From Bacteroidota bacterium (GTDB lineage Bacteria > Bacteroidota > Bacteroidia > Bacteroidales > 4484-276): a stretch of DNA of 37,013 nucleotides. The DNA lies in the NCBI GenBank assembly GCA_013203545.1, contig JABMQA010000345.1, positions 1 to 37,013 on the forward strand. The letters are read 5' to 3'. The position numbers were made by a program, and so were the translations under genes. Positions 11,621-32,269 of this stretch are shown piece by piece (position 1 is the stretch's first letter; the number at the start of each line of letters is the position of its first letter). Under the pieces are notes generated by a model. It saw only the letters and a list, made by a program, of their open reading frames with translations. It had not been told where the DNA came from and did not search any database.

Positions 11621-11971
11621 TTATTCTCCATTCTCCAGGCCTGTTTTTACACGGTATGCTTTTTCAACATCGGAAACGTAAATAATTCCGTCACCGTGAT
11701 TAAGTGTACACCCGTGTTCACAGATTAAACTTGTAATAGTATCAACATCAGCATCTTTTGCCACAATTTCAAGTTTAGCAATTTCACTATCAGTAATCGA
11801 AAATTTTTGTGATACAAAAGCTGTATCGTCCTGAAATTTCCCTGTGCCTTCGGCCATAGAAATAGTCATGTTGTCAAAACCTTCTTCTTTTAAGTGCTGA
11901 ATAATTTTATTCACTTTATTTGGTCGTATAAATGCTTTTATTTCTTTCATGATACTAATTTTAATGGTCAT
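11621..11971 (-). CDS. P-II (GlnB/GlnK-fold) family protein
   Basis: MKEIKAFIRPNKVNKIIQHLKEEGF...GDGIIYVSDVEKAYRVKTGLE is collinear with canonical P-II proteins. The likely true start is Met8 at 11950, 10 nt after the czcB stop, because the longer ORF overlaps czcB by 11 nt. Confidence 0.8.
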   Translation of the reverse strand: MTIKISIMKEIKAFIRPNKVNKIIQHLKEEGFDNMTISMAEGTGKFQDDTAFVSQKFSITDSEIAKLEIVAKDADVDTITSLICEHGCTLNHGDGIIYVSDVEKAYRVKTGLENGE

Positions 11972-23533: not shown

Positions 23534-24037
23534 TTAGTGTTGGTGATGATGTTCTTTATTTCCTGATTGGTTTTCCGCATCCATCATTTTCATTTTACCA
23601 TCCGGTCCCATCATACCCTTGTCTTTCATTTTTTGCATGCACATTTGCATCATCCGGGGATGTTCGGTCATCATGTCTGCCATTTTGTTGCGCATTGTAG
23701 AATCCTGCTCAGACATATCCATCATATTGCCCATCATTTTTTGCATCATTTCAGGATTATCCTTCATCATGCCCATCATCTGATGTTCATCTTTCATTTC
23801 CATTTTTCCATCATTCCCCATCATTTGTTGGTTTTCTTTCATCATCATCATGGCATGTTCGTTACCTTTCATTGATTTCATGAAGTCCGTCATAAGCACA
23901 TGATCGTTTAAAATAGTGTTGAAAATCTCAGTCCGTGTTTCCGGCTTATCGAGAAGCCCTTTGATATCTACATTTTGACTATAACCATTGAAAGTCAGTA
24001 GTACTAGCATTGAAAATAAAATTGCAAGTGTTTTCAT
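23534..24037 (-). CDS. Secreted Met-rich (about 39 Met in 167 aa by hand count) protein with His-rich C-terminus
   Basis: Signal peptide LVLLTFNGYSQ is followed by runs such as HAMMMMKENQQMMG, HQMMGMMKDNPEMMQKMMGNMMDM and RMMQMCMQKM. The protein ends KEHHHQH. Confidence 0.75.
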   Translation of the reverse strand: MKTLAILFSMLVLLTFNGYSQNVDIKGLLDKPETRTEIFNTILNDHVLMTDFMKSMKGNEHAMMMMKENQQMMGNDGKMEMKDEHQMMGMMKDNPEMMQKMMGNMMDMSEQDSTMRNKMADMMTEHPRMMQMCMQKMKDKGMMGPDGKMKMMDAENQSGNKEHHHQH

Positions 24038-24107
24038 AATAATAAATTTTTAAATTGTTTTACTTAAATTGTTTTTTCATGGTGAATCACTTTAATGTTT
24101 TATGGTA

Positions 24108-24115
24108 CAAAGGTA
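24108..24115 (-). promoter_or_regulatory. Candidate -7 promoter box (TACCTTTG) upstream of the Met-rich gene, abutting an imperfect palindrome at 24116..24130
   Basis: The minus strand reads CTGGTAAGCTTCCAG-TACCTTTG. TACCTTTG fits TAnnTTTG, ~70 nt upstream of the ATG at 24037. The plus strand also shows GGTAC-AAA-GGTAC direct repeats. Confidence 0.3.
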
Positions 24116-24177
24116 CTGGAAGCTTACCAGGCAGATGTTACACAATTCATTGAATAGTTTTCATGATTCTCAGGTAT

Positions 24178-24789
24178 TTAGACATTATCAATTGATTTTA
24201 GTTTTTGATCTCCCAGCTTTTTAAAATATGAAGGCGTAAACCCGGTTATTCTTTTAAATTGGCCTGATAAGTGCGCCACACTGCTATAGCCCATGTCAAA
24301 TGCAATTTCGCTGAGTGTTTTTTCATCATAAACCAGCAGTTCTTTCACGCGTTCTATTTTCAGGTTGATCATATGCTTTTCTATTGTTGTGCCCTCCACC
24401 GAGGAATAAAGCGAGCTTAAGTAATTATAATCAAGAAGTAGCTTGTCAGAAAGATAGTCTGAGAAATTAACCTTAATTTGCTCCGGATGATGATATACAA
24501 ATTCGATTGTGATTTTTCTAATCTGCTCGATCAACCGGCTTTTACTATCATTAATGATCTCAAAACCTACTTTATTTAACCGGATTTCGAGGTTTTCATG
24601 TTTTTCCTGATCAATGGGTGTATCAATTATAACTTTTCCCATTTCCACCCGGGCATTTGCGATTCCCACATCACTGAATATTTCGGAGACCACCAGAATG
24701 CACCGGTTACATACCATGTTTTTAATGTAAATATGTTTTTGTTTATCCAGAGGGTGTGTTTTTTTCTTTTCCATGTCTATTCTTTTCAT
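24178..24789 (-). CDS. AraC-family regulator with N-terminal HMA-like CxxC domain
   Basis: 203 aa. The N-terminus reads IYIKNMVCNRCILVV...LNKVGFEI (HMA-like fold with C-x2-C). The C-terminal AraC HTH reads LSEIAFDMGYSSVAHLSGQFKRITGFTPSYF. The start overlaps the upstream stop (TAATG). Confidence 0.85.
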   Translation of the reverse strand: MKRIDMEKKKTHPLDKQKHIYIKNMVCNRCILVVSEIFSDVGIANARVEMGKVIIDTPIDQEKHENLEIRLNKVGFEIINDSKSRLIEQIRKITIEFVYHHPEQIKVNFSDYLSDKLLLDYNYLSSLYSSVEGTTIEKHMINLKIERVKELLVYDEKTLSEIAFDMGYSSVAHLSGQFKRITGFTPSYFKKLGDQKLKSIDNV

Positions 24790-25901
24790 TAGATTTTTTT
24801 ATTCATGTCTATAAGGAATTTCCGAACTGCCAGGGCTGCTTTCGCCCCTTCCCCGGACGCAATAATTATCCTTTTGCCAAATACATTGGTAACGTCGCCT
24901 GCAGCAAAAATACCCGGGTACGATGTGGAACAATCCTGATTAATAATTATTTCGCCTTTTTCATTTAAATCAACATATTTAAAAACCAAGGAAGTATCAG
25001 GACGGAGGCCAATGGCAACAAAAGCTCCTGAAACAGGCAATTTATTTGTTTCCTTATCACCTTTCTTTCGAATTTGGACTGCCGTTAAAATCTTATTTCC
25101 AATAAATTTTTCAACTTTATATTCCTCAAAAATTTCAAGGTTACTTAATGTCCTTATCCGTTCAATAATTATTGCATCTCCAGTAAGAATAGTATCTGAA
25201 ACAAGAAATACCTTTTTAGTAATTTTATGAAGATTTTCTACCATTTGCAGTGCGGAATTTCCCCCGCCTATGATAACCACATTTTTATTTTGGACGTACG
25301 ACATATCCTGAATGTTTCCGTAAAAAAGCCCTTTTCGTTGAAATTTTTCTTCTCCAGGCACATTCAGTTCCCGTCTCTTCATCCCACTCGCAATCAAAAT
25401 AGTCTTTGTGAAAAACTTTTTCCTTTTGGAGGTAATAACCATAAATCCTTTATTCTCAATTGGAATTATCAATTCAACCTCGCATAATAGATGATCGATA
25501 TAGTGTGAATTTAAAAGTTGATAATGAAACTTTTGTATTAATTCCGGGCCGGTAATAAAATCAAATCCCATGTAATTTTCAATTTTCGTGCTATCAATCG
25601 CCTGGCCACCGAGATTATCGGTAATTAAAAAAGCTTTCATCCGTAAAATTGAAGCATATACACAAGCTGTTAAGCCGGCTGGCCCACCGCCAATTATTAT
25701 TAAATCACTTGGTTCGGATTCATCAGATGCTGTATTTGATCTTTTGTTTTGAAATTTGTTTTTACACCCTTCAGAACAAAAATAAAACTCAGTTTCATCT
25801 AATTTTAAAACAATGGCATGCTCTTTATCGATTGCCATATTACAAATTGGATCAATTACTTTATTATTTCCTGGTTTCATTGGTCTGTGTTTTTCTAACA
25901 A
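24789..25901 (-). CDS. YHS-domain::thioredoxin-reductase-like FAD/NAD(P)H flavoprotein lacking the redox-active CxxC
   Basis: 370 aa. Residues 17-50 (DPICNMAID...EFYFCSEGCKNKF) form a YHS domain. The flavoprotein part has LIIIGGGPAGLTA (FAD), VVIIGGGNSALQ (NAD(P)H) and GIFAAGDV. The position of the TrxB CATC reads YGNIQD. Confidence 0.85.
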   Translation of the reverse strand: MLEKHRPMKPGNNKVIDPICNMAIDKEHAIVLKLDETEFYFCSEGCKNKFQNKRSNTASDESEPSDLIIIGGGPAGLTACVYASILRMKAFLITDNLGGQAIDSTKIENYMGFDFITGPELIQKFHYQLLNSHYIDHLLCEVELIIPIENKGFMVITSKRKKFFTKTILIASGMKRRELNVPGEEKFQRKGLFYGNIQDMSYVQNKNVVIIGGGNSALQMVENLHKITKKVFLVSDTILTGDAIIIERIRTLSNLEIFEEYKVEKFIGNKILTAVQIRKKGDKETNKLPVSGAFVAIGLRPDTSLVFKYVDLNEKGEIIINQDCSTSYPGIFAAGDVTNVFGKRIIIASGEGAKAALAVRKFLIDMNKKI

Positions 25902-25908
25902 TAGAAAT

Positions 25909-26184
25909 TTAATGTTTTCTCGCTGAAAGATTATAAATAGCTGCTATACTGGCTCCTATTATCCCACTTATAATGAAAGTCTCTGCTATTCCTATCATTG
26001 CTTCCCACCAGGGAATATTCATACGAATGATAGAAGATGTATCAAGCCCGTGCAACAGGTTGTTAAAAACCTGTACGGTTCCTTCGCGGCCTACGGTGGC
26101 CATTAGGATTATACATCCAAGGTAAAGAAGCGCGCCGGTTAAACCGAAGGCCAATCCAAAACGTTTAATGTTGATGGTTTTCAT
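25909..26184 (-). CDS. Small 2-3 TM membrane protein, DUF5676-like
   Basis: 91 aa (MKTINIKRFGLAFGLTGALLYLGCIILM...IGIAETFIISGIIGASIAAIY). Its start overlaps the upstream NDH-2-like stop by 20 nt. The family name is recalled, not verified. Confidence 0.6.
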   Translation of the reverse strand: MKTINIKRFGLAFGLTGALLYLGCIILMATVGREGTVQVFNNLLHGLDTSSIIRMNIPWWEAMIGIAETFIISGIIGASIAAIYNLSARKH

Positions 26185-27556
26185 GATTTTCTGTTTTTAA
26201 GGTTTTATTATCTGTATTTTTATGTTCATGGTTTTGTTCTTTATACCTGCGGATGATTACCCGGTCTCCTTTATCGTATGTGAAATAGCTCCACATCCAG
26301 TTAACTGCAATCACCAATTTATTTCGCATGCCCATAATACTCATCAGGTGAACAGCGGACCAGATAACCCAGGCAAAAAAACCAGCGAACTCCCTACCAT
26401 AAATACTGGCAACAGCTTTCTTTTTCCCAACTGCAGCAAGCGATCCTTTGTCGAGATAAATAAAGGGAATTAATGGTTCTCTTTGGATAAGCCTCAATAG
26501 GTTTTCAGCCAGGTTTTTGCCTTGTTGAATAGCAGGTTGTGCAACCATTGGATGACCATTAGGAAATGTTGTTGTTGGCATTTGTGCGACATCGCCAATG
26601 GCAAACACATTATCTATGGGTGAAACCCTGTTAAATTCATCAACTACAATACGTGATTGTTTATTAACTGCTGCCGAAGGAATTCCGTCGATAACAGCGC
26701 CCTTAACACCTGCAGTCCAAATAAAAGCTGCTGTTTCCAGCGTTTTCCCATTATTAAGTGTAACTGTTTTTCCATCGAACGATCTTACCAGGGTACTTAA
26801 TAAAACATCAACTTTCATTTTGGTGAGATAATGCAACGTTTTTTTCGATAATGTTTCAGGCATTCCTGAAAGAAGACGATCAGTTCCTTCTATCAAAAAA
26901 ATTTTCATCTCAACATTTTTCAGTTCCGGGTAATCTTTTCTGAAAATATATCTCTTGAACTCGGCCAATGCCCCGGCCATCTCAACACCTGCCGACCCAC
27001 CCCCAACAATAGCAACACTGCTCAGTATTTCTTTTTCTTCCTGAATACAGGTTATCGCCGCTTTTTCAAGGTTTTGAAGGAGTTTGCTCCTGATGTCCAG
27101 TGCATCTGTTACCGATTTTAACCTCAGTCCAAACCGTTCAAATCCACCATTTCCAAAAAAATTATTTGTGCTGCCGCCGGCAACCACCAGATAGTTATAG
27201 TCGATGTAACCAATACTGGTGTCAACCCTGTTATTATCGGTGTCAATACCGGTAACTTCGGCCATTCGGAAAATTACATTTTCATATTTTTCGAATATCT
27301 TCCTGAATGGGAAAACAATGCTGTCGGGTTCGGTGCCGCTGGTTGCAACCAGATAAAGCAATGGCAAAAATTGATGAAAATTGTTTTTATCAATCAACAC
27401 GACCTGAACAGGCTTATTTTTCAATACCTTAACCAGGTTTAAACCGGCAAATCCGCCTCCCACAACAACAATTCTGGGAAGATCAGAATCCGGCACACAG
27501 ATGTGCCCTTTTTCGAAACAGTTTATTTTATCGCAGCATTGCATTTCTTCAATCAA
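26165..27556 (-). CDS. Type II NADH:quinone oxidoreductase (NDH-2)-like flavoprotein with Cys-rich N-terminal and His-rich C-terminal extensions
   Basis: 463 aa with two dinucleotide folds (RIVVVGGGFAGL; VAIVGGGSAGVEMAG), IGDVA, and an NDH-2-type C-terminal amphipathic region (FFAWVIWSAVHLMSIMGMRNK). The N-terminus reads MIEEMQCCDKINCFEKGHICV and the C-terminus reads QNHEHKNTDNKTLKTENHENHQH. Confidence 0.88.
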   Translation of the reverse strand: MIEEMQCCDKINCFEKGHICVPDSDLPRIVVVGGGFAGLNLVKVLKNKPVQVVLIDKNNFHQFLPLLYLVATSGTEPDSIVFPFRKIFEKYENVIFRMAEVTGIDTDNNRVDTSIGYIDYNYLVVAGGSTNNFFGNGGFERFGLRLKSVTDALDIRSKLLQNLEKAAITCIQEEKEILSSVAIVGGGSAGVEMAGALAEFKRYIFRKDYPELKNVEMKIFLIEGTDRLLSGMPETLSKKTLHYLTKMKVDVLLSTLVRSFDGKTVTLNNGKTLETAAFIWTAGVKGAVIDGIPSAAVNKQSRIVVDEFNRVSPIDNVFAIGDVAQMPTTTFPNGHPMVAQPAIQQGKNLAENLLRLIQREPLIPFIYLDKGSLAAVGKKKAVASIYGREFAGFFAWVIWSAVHLMSIMGMRNKLVIAVNWMWSYFTYDKGDRVIIRRYKEQNHEHKNTDNKTLKTENHENHQH

Positions 27557-27580
27557 TAGATTCTGTAATTAAAAAATAAG

Positions 27581-27922
27581 TTAAATAGCCAATATCCCAC
27601 TCTCGTCAGTTCTCACCTTATACACTTCATCCACGGGGGAAATAATAATCATCCCGTCGCCCCGGTAACCCGTGCGGCCGTTTTTCCTGATAATTTCAAT
27701 TATGCTGGAAACATGTTCCTCAGCTACAAGGATCTCCAGTTTAATTACCCTGTATGCATCTGCAAAGGGATATTTGTCACTAATGTGGTCTTTTTCATGA
27801 TCAGAGTACTGGCCGGTGCCTTCGCATTCCACCATGGTCATACAACAGAAGCCGTTTTCTTTTAATGCTTTATAGACTTCATCAATTTTTCTGTGCCTGA
27901 TGTAAGCTTTTATCAGTTTCAT
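27581..27922 (-). CDS. P-II (GlnB/GlnK-fold) family protein, paralog of 11621..11971
   Basis: 113 aa. MKLIKAYIRHRKIDEVYKALKENGF...GDGMIIISPVDEVYKVRTDE is collinear with P-II. The T-loop region is replaced by the His/Asp-rich GTGQYSDHEKDHISDKYPFADAY. Confidence 0.8.
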   Translation of the reverse strand: MKLIKAYIRHRKIDEVYKALKENGFCCMTMVECEGTGQYSDHEKDHISDKYPFADAYRVIKLEILVAEEHVSSIIEIIRKNGRTGYRGDGMIIISPVDEVYKVRTDESGILAI

Positions 27923-27937
27923 GATATGCTGTTTTTT

Positions 27938-28195
27938 TTAAACTGCAATATGAAGTGCAGCCAGGTTTATGTCTTGTTTCAAAGGAAATCCGATATCTTT
28001 TAAATCTGATTTAAATGATTCAAGGTTGAATAACTTTGGGTTAAATTCCACATACAAATTCTCCGCTTCAACGCACATACTGATCATGCCTTTCGATTTC
28101 AATAAATGTTTAAGATGAACTTTAAAAGCATCTTGTTCGATTTTTGTGAGAATTAGCTGTGTGTTCATTACTTCCAGTTTAAATGTATTTTTCAT
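27938..28195 (-). CDS. Small hypothetical protein, CxxC-less HMA-like fold (inferred)
   Basis: 85 aa. GMISMCVEAENLYVEFNPKLFNLESFKSDLKDIGFPL aligns by eye with 28469..28792 and with the C-terminus of 6502..7014. It sits tightly packed in the operon. Confidence 0.5.
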   Translation of the reverse strand: MKNTFKLEVMNTQLILTKIEQDAFKVHLKHLLKSKGMISMCVEAENLYVEFNPKLFNLESFKSDLKDIGFPLKQDINLAALHIAV

Positions 28196-28231
28196 TGTTT
28201 CTAATATTTAATGATTTGTAATTTATTTCTG

Positions 28232-28441
28232 TTATTTCAGTGCCGGTTTTTCTTTGCAGTCGATAATCGCTTTAACCTTACAGTGGCCACATACCGAACT
28301 GTCAGATTCATTCTTTTCATCGAGATGGCATGAGGGCATGTTAATTTCATCTTCCTCACCAAAAAGCAGTTTTAAACTCATTGCTAAAACCAAAAAACCA
28401 GTTGAAACGATCGTTATAATTATTAGGCCTATCCAATTCAT
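28232..28441 (-). CDS. Mini membrane protein with Cys-rich tail
   Basis: 69 aa with one N-terminal TM (IGLIIITIVSTGFLVLAMSL), followed by SCHLDEKNESDSSVCGHCKVKAIIDC (4 Cys and 2 His). Confidence 0.5.
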   Translation of the reverse strand: MNWIGLIIITIVSTGFLVLAMSLKLLFGEEDEINMPSCHLDEKNESDSSVCGHCKVKAIIDCKEKPALK

Positions 28442-28468
28442 GTCTTTATTTATTTAATGGCTAAAAAA

Positions 28469-28792
28469 TTAATGTTTAACAGTAGAGCAGCATTTTGGAG
28501 GTTTTCCACCAAATGCCTTGTTGTTTTCTTGTCCAAGTTTCAAAATGAACTTCTGCCAGACCCCCTGGTTTTTTTGCATCGGTGCGAAAGGGAATCCGGC
28601 CTTTACTAAAGCGTCTTTTACCATATCAGGAGACAGTAACTGTTGATAGTACTCAATCATTACAGAATCTTCTTCAACGTTAAATGATGTTACCCCACTT
28701 AAGCCGGTTAGTCCTAACATAACCTTTATGATCTCATTCTGGCTAAGTAAATGCCCCGGATTGAATTTTTCGATTGAAGTCGGTATATCCAT
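28469..28792 (-). CDS. Small hypothetical protein, CxxC-less HMA-like fold with C-terminal KCCS motif
   Basis: 107 aa with GVTSFNVEEDSVMIEYYQQLLSPDMVKDALVKAGFPF, the beta-alpha-beta pattern of the second half of an HMA domain. The tail reads GGKPPKCCSTVKH. Confidence 0.5.
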   Translation of the reverse strand: MDIPTSIEKFNPGHLLSQNEIIKVMLGLTGLSGVTSFNVEEDSVMIEYYQQLLSPDMVKDALVKAGFPFAPMQKNQGVWQKFILKLGQENNKAFGGKPPKCCSTVKH

Positions 28793-28817
28793 AATTTATT
28801 TTTTTTAAATCATTAGT

Positions 28818-29348
28818 TTAATAGTTGTCGAAACCATAAATTTCTATATGGCTTTTGCTTTTGAAACCCATATTTTCTGTTTTATAAACAAGTAATTTGT
28901 TATTCCCATTAACCGACAATAACCTGTATTCATTCGTCTGAGGAATTTTCAGAAGAAAATTCCCATTTTCATCAATAACATTTACGGTAAATATCTGTTT
29001 GGAAAAGAAATCGGAAATCTCTTCGGTCGGATAAATTCTCTGGGGATAACACCTAAAAACTATATAAAGCTGATTTTCATTTTCTATAGAAGCAGTATTG
29101 ATAATGGCTATGCCATCAATGAAATGACCTTTTGGAATAAGTAGGTCGATTGATCTCCAAAGTGAATTATCAGCATTAAAGACTAAAAGTTTTTTCTTTT
29201 CCGGATCAACTTTGTAAAATTTTAGTGTTCCGTCTTTTAGTTGAAAAATGTTCATGTTTGCATCCAGCTTGCCCTCATACGAAATTTGAGCAAATCCAAT
29301 TGCAACACTAAATAGTAAGATTTGTGTGATTATCAGAAATTTTTTCAT
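28818..29348 (-). CDS. Secreted hypothetical beta-rich protein
   Basis: 176 aa with signal LLFSVAIGFAQ and no recognisable motif. It is the first gene after the 144-nt gap that follows the HYC_CC_PP-like gene. Confidence 0.6.
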   Translation of the reverse strand: MKKFLIITQILLFSVAIGFAQISYEGKLDANMNIFQLKDGTLKFYKVDPEKKKLLVFNADNSLWRSIDLLIPKGHFIDGIAIINTASIENENQLYIVFRCYPQRIYPTEEISDFFSKQIFTVNVIDENGNFLLKIPQTNEYRLLSVNGNNKLLVYKTENMGFKSKSHIEIYGFDNY

Positions 29349-29492
29349 GATCCTTGTTATTATAGTTGGTTAAGTAAAATGATTATTAGTGGTAGGTGAT
29401 TACATGCTCGATTGCAACTTAGCTATTCGATTTTTTTTGGAGTAATACAAGCAAGGGAATCACCTTTAGGCTGAATCTGTCACTATAGCCAA

Positions 29493-29867
29493 CTATAAGA
29501 GGTATGACTGTATTTTCGCAAGGAATAAATGTGTCCCAGGCGGCGGTGATGGATCAGTTATAATGTTTGCAGGTAAATAAAAATTAGCGTATTCGTTTAC
29601 CAGTTCTTTGTTTAATGTTCCAAATAAGTCGAGATCGGAAATGCTGAGTTCACCAGCTACCGGCTTTGTGAAATCAACCTTAAAAATAACAAGCATATTA
29701 TCATCGTGGCAGCATTCGTTTTCCATATCGTTGCAGCACGGTTCGGTGGGTAAATCAATAGAAACTGCAACAAGCTTGTCGCCGCAATAATGCCTGGATA
29801 TATTAAAACCGACCGTTGTCAGGATCAACAGGGCCGAGAGTATGATATATCCAATTTTTCTAAACAT
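29493..29867 (-). CDS. HYC_CC_PP-like small membrane-anchored Cys-rich protein
   Basis: 124 aa with an N-terminal TM. The eponymous motifs appear in order: RHYCG, EPCC/ECCHDD and PSPPPG. Confidence 0.7.
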   Translation of the reverse strand: MFRKIGYIILSALLILTTVGFNISRHYCGDKLVAVSIDLPTEPCCNDMENECCHDDNMLVIFKVDFTKPVAGELSISDLDLFGTLNKELVNEYANFYLPANIITDPSPPPGTHLFLAKIQSYLL

Positions 29868-29901
29868 AACTTTTAATTTCTTTTACAAAATTACAACAAG
29901 G

Positions 29902-30528
29902 TTACTGTAAATCTGTTACAAAATCCTGGAATTGATTTACATTATTTTTGGTTTTCAGCAATTTATCCAGCCCAAGCCGTTTATTTTTCTGAATCTTTTT
30001 AAAATGTGTCGGCGTCAGACCGGTAATTTTTTTGAATTGATTCGACAGGTACTGGACACTACTATAGTCTAATTGAATTGCGATTTCGCTCAACGACAAT
30101 TCATCGTAGACCAAAAGTTCTTTTGCCCTTTCAATTTTTTGCAGAATCAAATATTTCTCAATTGTTATTCCTTCAGTGGATGAGAACAGGCTACTGATGT
30201 AAGAATAATCGTTTCCAACTTGACGAGATAAAAAGTCCGAAAAATTAATGTTCTCACGTACCCCAACACCATAGTGAACTGCCTTTATGATTTCAGTCTT
30301 GATCTTGGAGATTATTCTGCTTTTTTTATCACTCAGTAATTCAAATCCATTAGCCTCAAGACTGAGTTTAATTGAATCGAGATCTTTTTCATCAATTGTT
30401 GAACCCAATTCTACTTTGCCCAATTCAATTGATTTAATGGTAAACCCCAGCTTTGTCAATTCCTCGTTTACAACTTTTATACACCGATTGCAAACCATAT
30501 TTTTAATATGTAATTCTTCATATGACAT
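29902..30528 (-). CDS. AraC-family regulator with N-terminal HMA-like CxxC domain (paralog of 24178..24789)
   Basis: 208 aa with LHIKNMVCNRCIKVV...LEANGFEL and an AraC HTH (LSEIAIQLDYSSVQYLSNQFKKITGLTPTHF). Confidence 0.85.
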   Translation of the reverse strand: MSYEELHIKNMVCNRCIKVVNEELTKLGFTIKSIELGKVELGSTIDEKDLDSIKLSLEANGFELLSDKKSRIISKIKTEIIKAVHYGVGVRENINFSDFLSRQVGNDYSYISSLFSSTEGITIEKYLILQKIERAKELLVYDELSLSEIAIQLDYSSVQYLSNQFKKITGLTPTHFKKIQKNKRLGLDKLLKTKNNVNQFQDFVTDLQ

Positions 30529-30547
30529 GATATAAATTTTTTCTGAT

Positions 30548-32269
30548 TTATTCTTTGATAATCTTTTTAGTATAGGTCTTGTTAGCTGAGAATAGACTAA
30601 GGATAAAAGTTCCCTGGCCTAAGGTCGTAAGGTCAATCAGTATCTGCTTATTATTTATTTCAAATCGTCGCTCAATAAGTTTATGTCCGGCCAGATCGTA
30701 GAATTTGTACCCTTCAAAAACGATGTCGTCGCTGGTAACTGTTAAGGTATTATTGCTCTCCATTAACGGATTTGGATACAAAATAATGTCGTCTGGATCA
30801 AGGTTATTCTCCCCAATTCCAATTGTCTCATCAACCACTTCAAACTGCCCCATCATGCCGTCGTCTTCGTGGGTGAGCATATGGCAATGGTACATGTAAG
30901 GTACATCATCGTTGGCATAATCGGTAAATTGCATGATCACCCTTGCCGATTGCATTGCCGGTACCAGGATCACATCTTTCCTGCCCTGCTCGCTTGCAGG
31001 CGGTGGCGCTCCATTTCTATCCAAAACATAAAAATGAACATCATGAATGTGAAAAGGATGGGCAGTTGGCGATTGATTGGTAAGTGTCCAAATTTCAATG
31101 TTGTTCAAAGGAATTGAATAATTAATGGTGTTCATATCAAAGCTGACACTATTGATATAGAATTTCCCATTCAATGCATTCGGGCCCATTGCCTCGGCTG
31201 TAAAAGTCAGTGTTCTTGTGATATTGGCTGAAGATTCGGGCAGGGAGTTTATTTCGACAAGGCTGCTTGGAATGGTGGTAACCGGATTGCTGGTGGGTGC
31301 AACCACATTTAATTCCATAATATCGAAATTTGATCCGTTCATCGGATTTGGATTGTAACCTGTAAGGGTCATCATCGACATCATACCGGGCAAGGTTGCG
31401 CCATACATTCCGTTTGGCAACTCAGCAGCATAGCTTTTCAGGTTCAGTGTTTGCCCCTGCATTCCTGAAAAATCAATAAGTATTTCAGCCCGTTCGCCCG
31501 GGGCCATCCGTGACCTTGTAACAGCATTGGGTTCGCTTAATAATCCATCGTCCGAACCAATTTGATAAAAAGTCTGGTTGCCGGATAAGCCAATATTAAA
31601 TACCCGTTGAGAGGAACCATTCAACAGCCTCAAACGAACAACCTGGGCCGGCACATCAAGTTTAGGATCGATGGTGGCGTTTACCATTAACACATCGTCA
31701 GAATTGGAAGGGACAACAATCTGGTTGGAAGCATCAAAATCTTTGGTTTGGATAACCAGGGGGAAATCATCAACACCGTAAGTCCTGGGCAATTCCAATG
31801 CCGCTTCATCTTCATCTCGTACTATGATAAAACCGGCAATCCCTTTGGAGACATGTAAATTGGTTTTTTCATGCAAATGGGGATGATACCAGTAGGTAGC
31901 TGCCCTGTCCATCACAGTAAAGGAAGGGTTCCACGAGTTGGAAGGCGCGATGATAGTGTGTGGGCCGCCATCATTTTCGGCTGAAACGTGCATTCCATGC
32001 CAGTGAATTGTAGTGGTGTCATTAAGTAGGTTATTTACTGTGATGTCAACAAATTCAGCTTTTTGCATGATCAGTGTGGGGCCGAGAATATTGCCGTTTA
32101 CACCCATTGTGTTTGTGGCCTGGCCACCATAAAATTGGACAGTCCCATTTTGAAGGTTAAGTTCAAAAGTTGTTCCCGACAGGGTATCTGGAATGATTAT
32201 ATCATTCTGCGCTGTCAGATACGTAAAAAAGAAAATTGATACAAGTGTCATTAATGTTTTACTTTTCAT
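30548..32269 (-). CDS. Multicopper oxidase with T9SS C-terminal sorting domain
   Basis: 573 aa with signal peptide FFFTYLTAQ. The four MCO copper motifs are IHWHGMH, WYHPHLH, HPFHIHDVHF and HCHMLTHEDDGMM. The last ~80 aa (ILYPNPLMESNNTLTV...GTFILSLFSANKTYTKKIIKE) fit the Por-secretion-tail pattern. Confidence 0.93.
   Translation of the reverse strand: MKSKTLMTLVSIFFFTYLTAQNDIIIPDTLSGTTFELNLQNGTVQFYGGQATNTMGVNGNILGPTLIMQKAEFVDITVNNLLNDTTTIHWHGMHVSAENDGGPHTIIAPSNSWNPSFTVMDRAATYWYHPHLHEKTNLHVSKGIAGFIIVRDEDEAALELPRTYGVDDFPLVIQTKDFDASNQIVVPSNSDDVLMVNATIDPKLDVPAQVVRLRLLNGSSQRVFNIGLSGNQTFYQIGSDDGLLSEPNAVTRSRMAPGERAEILIDFSGMQGQTLNLKSYAAELPNGMYGATLPGMMSMMTLTGYNPNPMNGSNFDIMELNVVAPTSNPVTTIPSSLVEINSLPESSANITRTLTFTAEAMGPNALNGKFYINSVSFDMNTINYSIPLNNIEIWTLTNQSPTAHPFHIHDVHFYVLDRNGAPPPASEQGRKDVILVPAMQSARVIMQFTDYANDDVPYMYHCHMLTHEDDGMMGQFEVVDETIGIGENNLDPDDIILYPNPLMESNNTLTVTSDDIVFEGYKFYDLAGHKLIERRFEINNKQILIDLTTLGQGTFILSLFSANKTYTKKIIKE

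Follow-up and report, generated by a model that had tools for sequence, protein, structure and literature searches.

A cysteine-tagged NDH-2 subfamily in Bacteroidota copper islands, a candidate copper-binding or copper-reducing respiratory enzyme

The closest described precedent for a respiratory flavoenzyme with a link to copper is the type II NADH:quinone oxidoreductase (NDH-2) of Escherichia coli. PMC1847454 cites work in which this enzyme has a Cu(II)-reductase activity linked to NADH and ligates Cu(I) through thiolates (Rapisarda 1999, 2002; Rodriguez-Montelongo 2006), and the references given there credit it with helping growth at extreme copper concentrations. Here we describe an NDH-2 encoded in a metal-resistance island on 37,013 nucleotides (nt) of DNA from a Bacteroidota bacterium (contig JABMQA010000345.1 of assembly GCA_013203545.1), a 37-kb stretch that we refer to as a whole as the window. 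The protein carries a short cysteine-bearing N-terminal extension, hereafter the tag, and the tag cysteines together with one cysteine of the protein body make up a cluster that sets one clade of Bacteroidota NDH-2 apart. On these grounds the tagged NDH-2 is a candidate for a respiratory enzyme that binds or reduces copper. As an NDH-2 it belongs to a kind of enzyme with a known copper-reduction precedent and does not make up a new category of protein. Our literature search found no paper on copper-island NDH-2 of Bacteroidota, on the cysteine cluster or on DUF5676, the family of a small membrane protein encoded next to it. The parts of the gene on which the argument rests are as follows.

26165..27544, minus strand: NDH-2, corrected coding sequence, 459 amino acids plus stop, starting at ATG 27544
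27491..27544, minus strand: N-terminal extension MQCCDKINCFEKGHICVP with C3, C4, C9, C16 and H14, absent from housekeeping Bacteroidota NDH-2
27443..27460, minus strand: FAD-binding GxGxxG (GGGFAG, residues 29-34), invariant in alignment A1
27047..27049, minus strand: codon of C166, a residue of AAITCIQEE that follows the long helix 145-164 and comes before a short helix entering the NADH Rossmann fold
26987..27004, minus strand: NADH-binding GxGxxG (GGGSAG, residues 181-186), with G181, G183 and G186 invariant
26888-26890, minus strand: NADH-type acidic residue E219, invariant in the alignment
26522..26542, minus strand: quinone-site AQxAxQQ (AQPAIQQ, residues 335-341), with A335, Q336, A338, Q340 and Q341 invariant
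26282..26380, minus strand: C-terminal membrane-anchor helices (residues 389-421, NDH2_C), modelled by AlphaFold2 as helices 389-401 and 409-421

By all sequence and fold criteria the window protein is a genuine NDH-2, with the corresponding activity predicted. Pfam matches comprise Pyr_redox_2 (1e-46), Pyr_redox (1e-12) and NDH2_C (residues 370-425, 36.5 bits against a cut-off of 27.7), and no NCBIfam model put a name to it. Invariance of the motifs was judged over 85 sequences, in which the GD motif is likewise invariant. E219, which closes the second strand of the NADH domain, is the residue that we take to set the choice of NADH over NADPH, and the AQxAxQQ residues presumably take part in quinone binding as elsewhere in the family. 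The best solved relative by sequence is the mycobacterial NDH-2 9mqy (1e-63, phmmer against the PDB). An AlphaFold2 model built on an alignment of 85 clade members has a mean predicted local distance difference test score (pLDDT) of 83.8, and its top Foldseek matches are all NDH-2, led by 9mqy (TM-score 0.84) and followed by the Staphylococcus aureus (5na1), Caldalkalibacillus thermarum (4nwz) and Ndi1 structures, with E-values from 1e-37 to 1e-30.

The minus-strand open reading frame (ORF) ends with a stop at 26165, and the match to Pyr_redox_2 and NDH2_C along with the two GxGxxG motifs bears out its assignment to NDH-2 in the first-pass annotation. Upstream it stays open as far as a TTG at 27556, which that annotation had taken as the start. 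The first ATG of the frame is at 27544 and encodes the N-terminus MQCCDKINCFEKGHICVP... Nearly all close homologues start with MQCC at the position aligned with this ATG, and in five loci in-frame stops lie 2-8 codons 5' of it. Further, the Cys codons of the tag alternate between TGC and TGT from locus to locus and its Gly and Pro codons also vary synonymously, which shows that the tag is translated. We therefore place the start at ATG 27544. The TTG is ruled out by the aligned ATG of the homologues and the upstream stops, and so is the GTG of V17 used in the public call for this gene (P0001, 443 amino acids), which removes a tag that is conserved at the protein level through synonymous codon changes. 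The protein is thus 459 residues long and the gap to the P-II-like gene upstream is 36 nt; the first-pass annotation was right about that neighbor (27581-27922, Pfam 7.5e-19) and wrong about the distance, which it gave as 24 nt. Its concern that the true start might lie downstream of the cysteines does not apply, as ATG 27544 precedes the whole cluster, and its count of five Cys in the first 21 residues needs correction: the first 21 residues of the TTG frame hold four Cys and one His, and the fifth Cys is C166. In total the window NDH-2 has five cysteines, at positions 3, 4, 9, 16 and 166.

Compared with E. coli Ndh, the window protein is likewise a monotopic FAD-containing NADH:quinone oxidoreductase with a link to copper tolerance and with cysteine thiolates as proposed copper ligands. 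The position of these ligands is different. In E. coli Ndh they form an internal CxxC beside the second FAD (Eggink) motif and followed by VPP, according to PMC1847454, whereas the cluster of the window protein consists of the N-terminal extension and C166. No E. coli-type CxxC was found in the window NDH-2, in which the region after the GD motif, FAIGDVAQMPTTTFPNGHPMVAQ, contains no Cys, so the copper links of E. coli Ndh and of the window clade appear to be convergent and not homologous. Moreover, E. coli ndh is a stand-alone housekeeping gene, whereas the window clade is embedded in copper islands.

Other parallels are more distant. MerA resembles the window protein in being a flavoprotein of the same superfamily with two dinucleotide-binding domains, encoded in a metal-resistance operon and provided with an appended N-terminal metal module and a vicinal Cys pair that serves as a relay. 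But MerA is soluble and reduces its metal at a redox-active Cys pair close to the flavin, whereas the window protein keeps the quinone site and the membrane anchor of NDH-2. No such flavin-proximal pair is present, there being no Cys in residues 17-165, and with the MerA model the protein reaches only 28.9 bits, the cut-off being 454. Group C in the scheme of Melo, Bandeiras and Teixeira from 2004 is said to comprise the Ca2+-dependent EF-hand NDH-2 of plants and fungi. These enzymes are a precedent for a metal-binding insertion that regulates NDH-2 activity, but the metal, the motif, its position and the organisms all differ.

A further comparison is with the housekeeping NDH-2 of the Bacteroidota themselves (Pedobacter, Chitinophaga, Flavobacterium and Brumimicrobium types), which have 36-54% identity to the window protein and the same domains, motifs and length. 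Those of Pedobacter, Chitinophaga, Flavobacterium and the family and order of the window genome, with 36-53% identity, start with MNIP(E/Q)T.LPR... at about window residue 15 and have no N-terminal Cys. Housekeeping NDH-2 carry T, S, K or D at position 166, and no copper genes are found within 8-10 kb of their genes.

In the island clade, C9 is present in 91% of the members, C16 in 97% and C166 in 98%, whereas the corresponding numbers in 61 housekeeping sequences are 0, 0 and 0, one chance Cys aside. The N-terminal Cys decoration described in the first-pass annotation is therefore real, and it is both conserved and clade-defining. What that reading had not noticed is the coupling of the tag to C166. 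Across 277 sequences, 152 have both C16 and C166, 123 have neither and only 2 (1+1) are discordant, both of them explained by misaligned N-termini or chance. Every loss of C16 within the clade is accompanied by loss of C166, as in P0090 (H/P), in P0096 (A/S) and in a 61-member Brumimicrobium-type group with R16 and S, T or D at 166, while sequences in which C9 is replaced by Tyr retain both. Position 166 is also the top discriminator of C16 status in the protein body, with a score of 1.0; the next, L159, lies nearby and reaches 0.78. We infer that C16 and C166 work together, whether by binding a metal or by forming a disulfide. As the alignments define it, the cluster has at its core C16, in the 14-residue N-terminal extension, and C166, in the linker that precedes the NADH domain. 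In the AlphaFold2 model residues 11-20 reach a pLDDT of 81 and residues 1-10 one of 60; from the former value the arm is predicted to be docked and not dangling. We also considered whether C166 corresponds to the Cys that is catalytic in sulfide:quinone reductases, and set the idea aside from the sequence register alone, since that Cys would be expected about 15 residues downstream, near the second glycine-rich loop.

In a tree built without the N-terminal columns the tagged proteins form one contiguous clade nested among untagged Bacteroidota NDH-2. Within the clade the tag grows stepwise, from C-[VIL]-P (Thermonema) to C-x6-C, found in Flavobacteriales-like proteins of about 55% identity, then to C-x4-C-x6-C and finally to the CC-x4-C-x6-C of the window; in the nested subclades C9 was added first, then C4 and then C3. 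When 150 diverse NDH-2 representatives from 1.84 billion clusters were searched for the C16+C166 pair, only the clade's own representative had it. As far as sequences can tell, then, the cluster is found in no other NDH-2 examined and defines a single Bacteroidota clade, and the tagged NDH-2 is a distinct, undescribed subfamily.

The genomic setting of this subfamily points to copper. The window is a metal-resistance island with its genes all on one strand. It encodes CusA/C/B, a multicopper oxidase with a type IX secretion tag, two AraC-type regulators, a YHS-flavoprotein, three DUF302 proteins and a SHOCT protein, as well as a CopA with three HMBD, a Fur protein, a CzcA-OEP fusion, a second P-II, a CDF protein and a second P-type ATPase. 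In such islands the tagged NDH-2 gene lies between the genes of the Cus resistance-nodulation-division (RND) pump and the gene of the CopA ATPase. We compared loci with at least 8 kb of flanking DNA, scoring island markers by tblastn with the window proteins. All 11 distinct C16-bearing loci other than the window have at least 2 copper-island markers, whereas none of 29 untagged loci has any (Fisher p = 4e-10, not corrected for phylogeny). The markers seen were CusB/C with HMBD and DUF3347, CopA-HMBD, DUF302, SHOCT, DUF5676, YHS-flavoprotein and P-II, along with HMA. The R16/S166 relative P0275 is flanked by SSF, PhoH, ComEC and Mg-chelatase genes. The tagged NDH-2 is thus an accessory, island-borne enzyme, found in copper islands in every context examined, and the earlier suggestion that an NDH-2 had been recruited into a copper island is borne out by the contrast between tagged and untagged loci. 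A scan for sigma-70 promoters and terminators over 23900-30700 returned hits at chance level and is uninformative for Bacteroidota.

The tagged gene is also rare. The closest homologues of the window NDH-2 belong to other Bacteroidota lineages, and none of 40 relatives from the family or order of the window genome has a tagged NDH-2. Out of 400 sampled genomes of the phylum the tagged type was confirmed in one (G429), the tag being present in none of the other 28 top-scoring loci examined. No tagged-type gene was found on any of 72,556 plasmids, where the best match is 46% identical. Maribellus and Ancylomarina have the island without the tagged NDH-2 and an ordinary NDH-2 elsewhere in the genome. 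Two genomes, G442 and G429, have the tagged copy only and a third, G443, has a tagged and a housekeeping copy. The metagenome-assembled genome (MAG) to which the window belongs (G000, 89% complete) has the tagged gene as the sole NDH-2 found; NqrA is present (C963:5080-5358), and neither NuoD nor a housekeeping NDH-2 was detected. The island NDH-2 and the Na+-translocating NADH:quinone oxidoreductase (Na+-NQR) may therefore be the only NADH:quinone oxidoreductases of this 89%-complete MAG. The first-pass annotation had allowed that the gene might be the only housekeeping ndh of its genome and that its tags might not be conserved; the first half agrees with its being the sole NDH-2 in the MAG, and the second fails for the N-terminal tag, which is conserved.

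Taken together, these observations lead us to propose a Cu(I)-thiolate site, formed by the cysteine cluster, through which the input of electrons from NADH to quinone would be tied to copper tolerance, and we put the probability of this reading at roughly 0.5. C16 and C166, with C9 as a third ligand, would make the Cu(I)-thiolate site, and the vicinal C3/C4 pair may be an arm for capture or hand-over. Occupied by metal, the site would fasten the N-terminal arm to the inter-domain linker and so couple copper occupancy to the flow of electrons from NADH to quinone. Copper tolerance would be the output, by one or both of two routes: NADH-driven reduction of Cu(II) to Cu(I) that supplies the Cu(I) exporters CopA and Cus, or copper-activated NADH oxidation, free of Fe-S clusters, when Na+-NQR is compromised. 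The His-rich C-terminal tail and the overlap with the DUF5676 gene, which are discussed below, would be local peculiarities outside this mechanism. The reading is suggested by three lines of evidence, namely that the neighbors of the gene encode Cu(I)-type binders, that accretion of cysteines including a vicinal pair typifies thiophilic metal sites, and that E. coli NDH-2 reduces Cu(II) and carries thiolate-bound Cu(I).

Several points weigh against a Cu(I)-thiolate site with this role. C16 and C166 each precede the first strand of their Rossmann domain and so probably lie away from the flavin. This distance probably counts against direct electron transfer to a metal bound at C16/C166, and a regulatory or hand-over role is therefore favored over catalysis at the site; Cu(II) reduction, if there is any, would take the path proposed for E. 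coli, by way of the flavin or the quinone. The cytoplasm is in any case usually assumed to reduce Cu(II) non-enzymatically. The statistics on gene context are uncorrected for phylogeny and come from loci selected for long contigs, and the C16/C166 covariation, though uniform in its pattern, amounts to about 4-6 independent events (phylogenetic sign test p = 0.125, underpowered). In two tier-A members, L052 and L053, the gene is at the edge of the island and adjoins housekeeping genes. Finally, since it is the sole NDH-2 in the MAG of the window and in G442 and G429, the tagged copy must also serve general respiration in these genomes.

A bolder version, which we regard as unlikely, would make the clade a dedicated membrane-bound, NADH-driven cupric (or argentic) reductase with a MerA-like relay from C3/C4 through C9/C16/C166 to CopA/Cus. 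Metal at C9/C16/C166 would be reduced there, or held as Cu(I), and then given to CopA or Cus. If true, the clade would provide the first case of a bacterial copper-resistance operon with a dedicated copper reductase of the cytoplasmic face.

The same covariation can be read without any bound metal. C16 and C166 might form a reversible disulfide that clamps the arm to the linker and switches NDH-2 under copper-induced thiol oxidation. Copper stress does oxidize thiols, the two residues covary strictly as a pair that survives without C9, and where the pair is lost it is replaced by R with S, T or D, as expected of residues in contact. A two-Cys switch, however, has no use for the stepwise gain of C9, C4 and C3 with a vicinal CC typical of thiophilic metal sites, and the adjoining island proteins (HMA, HMBD, YHS and the Cys-rich P-II) are binders of the Cu(I) type. 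For these reasons we consider a disulfide switch doubtful.

It is also rather improbable, in our judgment, that the enzyme is a plain back-up NDH-2 that keeps up Fe-S-free NADH oxidation under copper damage, its cysteines being structural (for example, for Zn) or neutral markers. The catalytic motifs are all intact, as such a role would demand, the tagged copy is the sole NDH-2 in G442, in G429 and in the MAG of the window (with Nqr only and no NuoD found), and NDH-2-like genes end other stress operons, such as the plasmid-borne frmR-frmA-fghA operon described at the end. But a plain back-up role does not account for a Cys pair that all island copies retain and that is missing exactly from the subclade located among housekeeping genes, nor for the fact that the cluster takes in all five Cys of the protein. 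Least probable of all is that the enzyme reduces or senses a thiophilic species other than copper (Ag, Au, Hg, Cd, tellurite or a persulfide), the copper genes being only co-residents of a multi-metal island: the window does have a Czc-type RND, a CDF protein and a second P-type ATPase, and Cus and CopA also handle Ag(I), but the set that recurs in 11/11 loci is a copper/silver set (CusCBA with HMBD/DUF3347, CopA-HMBD, HMA and, in some loci, a multicopper oxidase), whereas Zn, Cd and Hg determinants do not recur around the tagged NDH-2.

The proposed Cu(I)-thiolate site touches on two long-standing questions: whether an enzyme is needed to provide exportable Cu(I) at the cytoplasm/membrane face, and what role the cupric reductase activity of E. 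coli NDH-2 plays. The Bacteroidota offer natural experiments on both, with tagged and untagged paralogues in one phylum, a Brumimicrobium-type subclade that has lost the cysteines and sits among housekeeping genes, cultured carriers (Marinilabilia, with NDH-2 P0021) and cultured genera that bear the island without the enzyme (Maribellus and Ancylomarina). The feature has been invisible in databases because gene callers often start past the tag and because the proteins go under no more specific name than 'NAD(P)/FAD-dependent oxidoreductase'. The public starts of P0001, P0021, P0029, P0035 and P0069, at a GTG or an internal Met, all lie downstream of the Cys tag, which exposes a systematic annotation error.

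At its 3' end the tagged gene of the window has two further features, both noted in the first-pass annotation.

25909..26184, minus strand: DUF5676 protein with two transmembrane (TM) segments, 91 amino acids, Pfam 7e-22
26165..26184, minus strand: 20-nt overlap of the NDH-2 3' end with the DUF5676 start, peculiar to the window genome
26168..26236, minus strand: His-rich tail QNHEHKNTDNKTLKTENHENHQH with 5 His, predicted disordered, lineage-specific

The 91-residue ORF matches DUF5676 with 78.6 bits against a cut-off of 27.6, over protein residues 5-86 and profile positions 1-81 of 82. The 20-nt overlap described in the first-pass annotation is there but is not conserved. DUF5676 recurs in the islands, in 5/11 of the other tagged loci and in 0/29 untagged loci, yet its position relative to the NDH-2 start varies (+1577, +2250, -350, -1422 and -2555 nt, on either side), which rules out a conserved translational coupling. 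C24 and H45 of the protein are conserved. Three positions are conserved among homologues, namely a TM1 Cys (YLGC), a loop His (LLHGxD) and a TM2 Cys (GACIAA); at the last of these the window copy has Ser. The sequence suggests that DUF5676 is a small membrane metal-binding protein. The His-rich tail, for its part, had been counted as 6 His in the last 23 residues; there are 5, and as a family feature the decoration does not hold up. In 181 of 220 homologues the tail has no His, so the window tail is an extreme, and we reject it as a functional metal tag of the family. Residues 438-459 have an AlphaFold2 pLDDT below 50. The closest homologue (85% identical) ends in ...RKFKDEKIIEENK, and the window tail is related to those of P0003 and P0004, with His enrichment in the window only.

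Upstream of the NDH-2 gene lies the P-II-like gene.

27581..27922, minus strand: P-II-fold protein, 113 amino acids, Pfam P-II 7.5e-19 (68.4 bits against a cut-off of 25), ending 36 nt upstream of ATG 27544

PMC7726332 places PII-NG proteins beside heavy-metal RND pumps and assigns the P-II fold to CutA1 (Sant'Anna 2009; Arnesano 2003), which according to the same source binds copper at the equivalent of the P-II nucleotide cleft. The window P-II shares with these proteins the P-II fold and lies in a metal-efflux island, whereas its family has residues of its own in C26, C27, C33 and H46. We retrieved 565 homologues, the top 120 of which have 77-88% identity; among these C26 is conserved in 100%, C27 in 98%, C33 in 97.5% and H46 in 100%, and the T-loop is conserved as well. 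Solved P-II proteins match at 1e-17. The NCBIfam models give 56 bits for GlnB (cut-off 202) and 51 bits for GlnK (cut-off 181), far below equivalog level. In a rough alignment to E. coli GlnB, the B-loop K90 is replaced by Met and C26/C27 fall on the strand lining the nucleotide cleft, where CutA1 binds copper. From its sequence, the window P-II is a member of an uncharacterized and very conserved copper-island family.

This P-II gene stands directly upstream of NDH-2 in 9/9 distinct loci at 61% identity or more, the window included. In L043, L047, L054, L094 and L095, as in the window, it comes after CusA-CusC-CusB and small ORFs, so that a linkage to heavy-metal efflux RND pumps is present here as well. 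However, the same P-II occupies the same island position in Maribellus mangrovi and Ancylomarina longa with no NDH-2 behind it. Because P-II occurs without NDH-2 in L094 and L095, it is an island-core gene and NDH-2 an optional insert behind it. That islands lacking NDH-2 have the same P-II family with the same T-loop weakens the case for P-II as a dedicated partner of NDH-2, and a specific partnership between the two is possible but not indicated. With its T-loop conserved in this way, P-II would be expected to have a partner present in all of the islands, perhaps CusA or CopA.

A 69-amino-acid peptide (window 28232-28441, minus strand) has one TM segment and a Cys-rich tail (SCH...CGHC...C), and in most related islands a homologue of 67-73 amino acids immediately precedes the P-II gene; in the window an extra ORF of 85 amino acids (27938-28195) intervenes between the two. 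The second P-II paralogue of the window (11621-11971, minus strand) is 39% identical to the first and has none of the three cysteines. Its gene and the end of the membrane fusion protein gene in the CzcA-OEP efflux operon overlap, an arrangement like that of PII-NG.

The NDH-2 gene also keeps company with other enzymes. The operon of the window has a second flavoenzyme, the YHS-domain::thioredoxin-reductase-like flavoprotein (window 24789-25901, minus strand), which accompanies the tagged NDH-2 in L021, L022 and L046 and not in the other loci. In several islands a UbiE/MenG-like methyltransferase (213-225 amino acids) of the S-adenosylmethionine-dependent type follows directly downstream of the tagged NDH-2, at these positions.

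L045, 10015-10659: UbiE/MenG-like methyltransferase, preceded by a PEMT/ICMT-like gene
L047-L050, 9351-9992: UbiE/MenG-like methyltransferase
L051, 9366-10043: UbiE/MenG-like methyltransferase

This methyltransferase may act on the quinone pool or on a metal(loid). Lastly, on the Klebsiella pneumoniae plasmid pKP13f an NDH-2-like gene (L097, 9040-10350), its product 33% identical, closes an frmR-frmA-VOC-DUF3422-fghA operon. Such formaldehyde-detoxification operons, carried by large enterobacterial conjugative plasmids, are a further instance of a stress operon with an accessory NDH-2.

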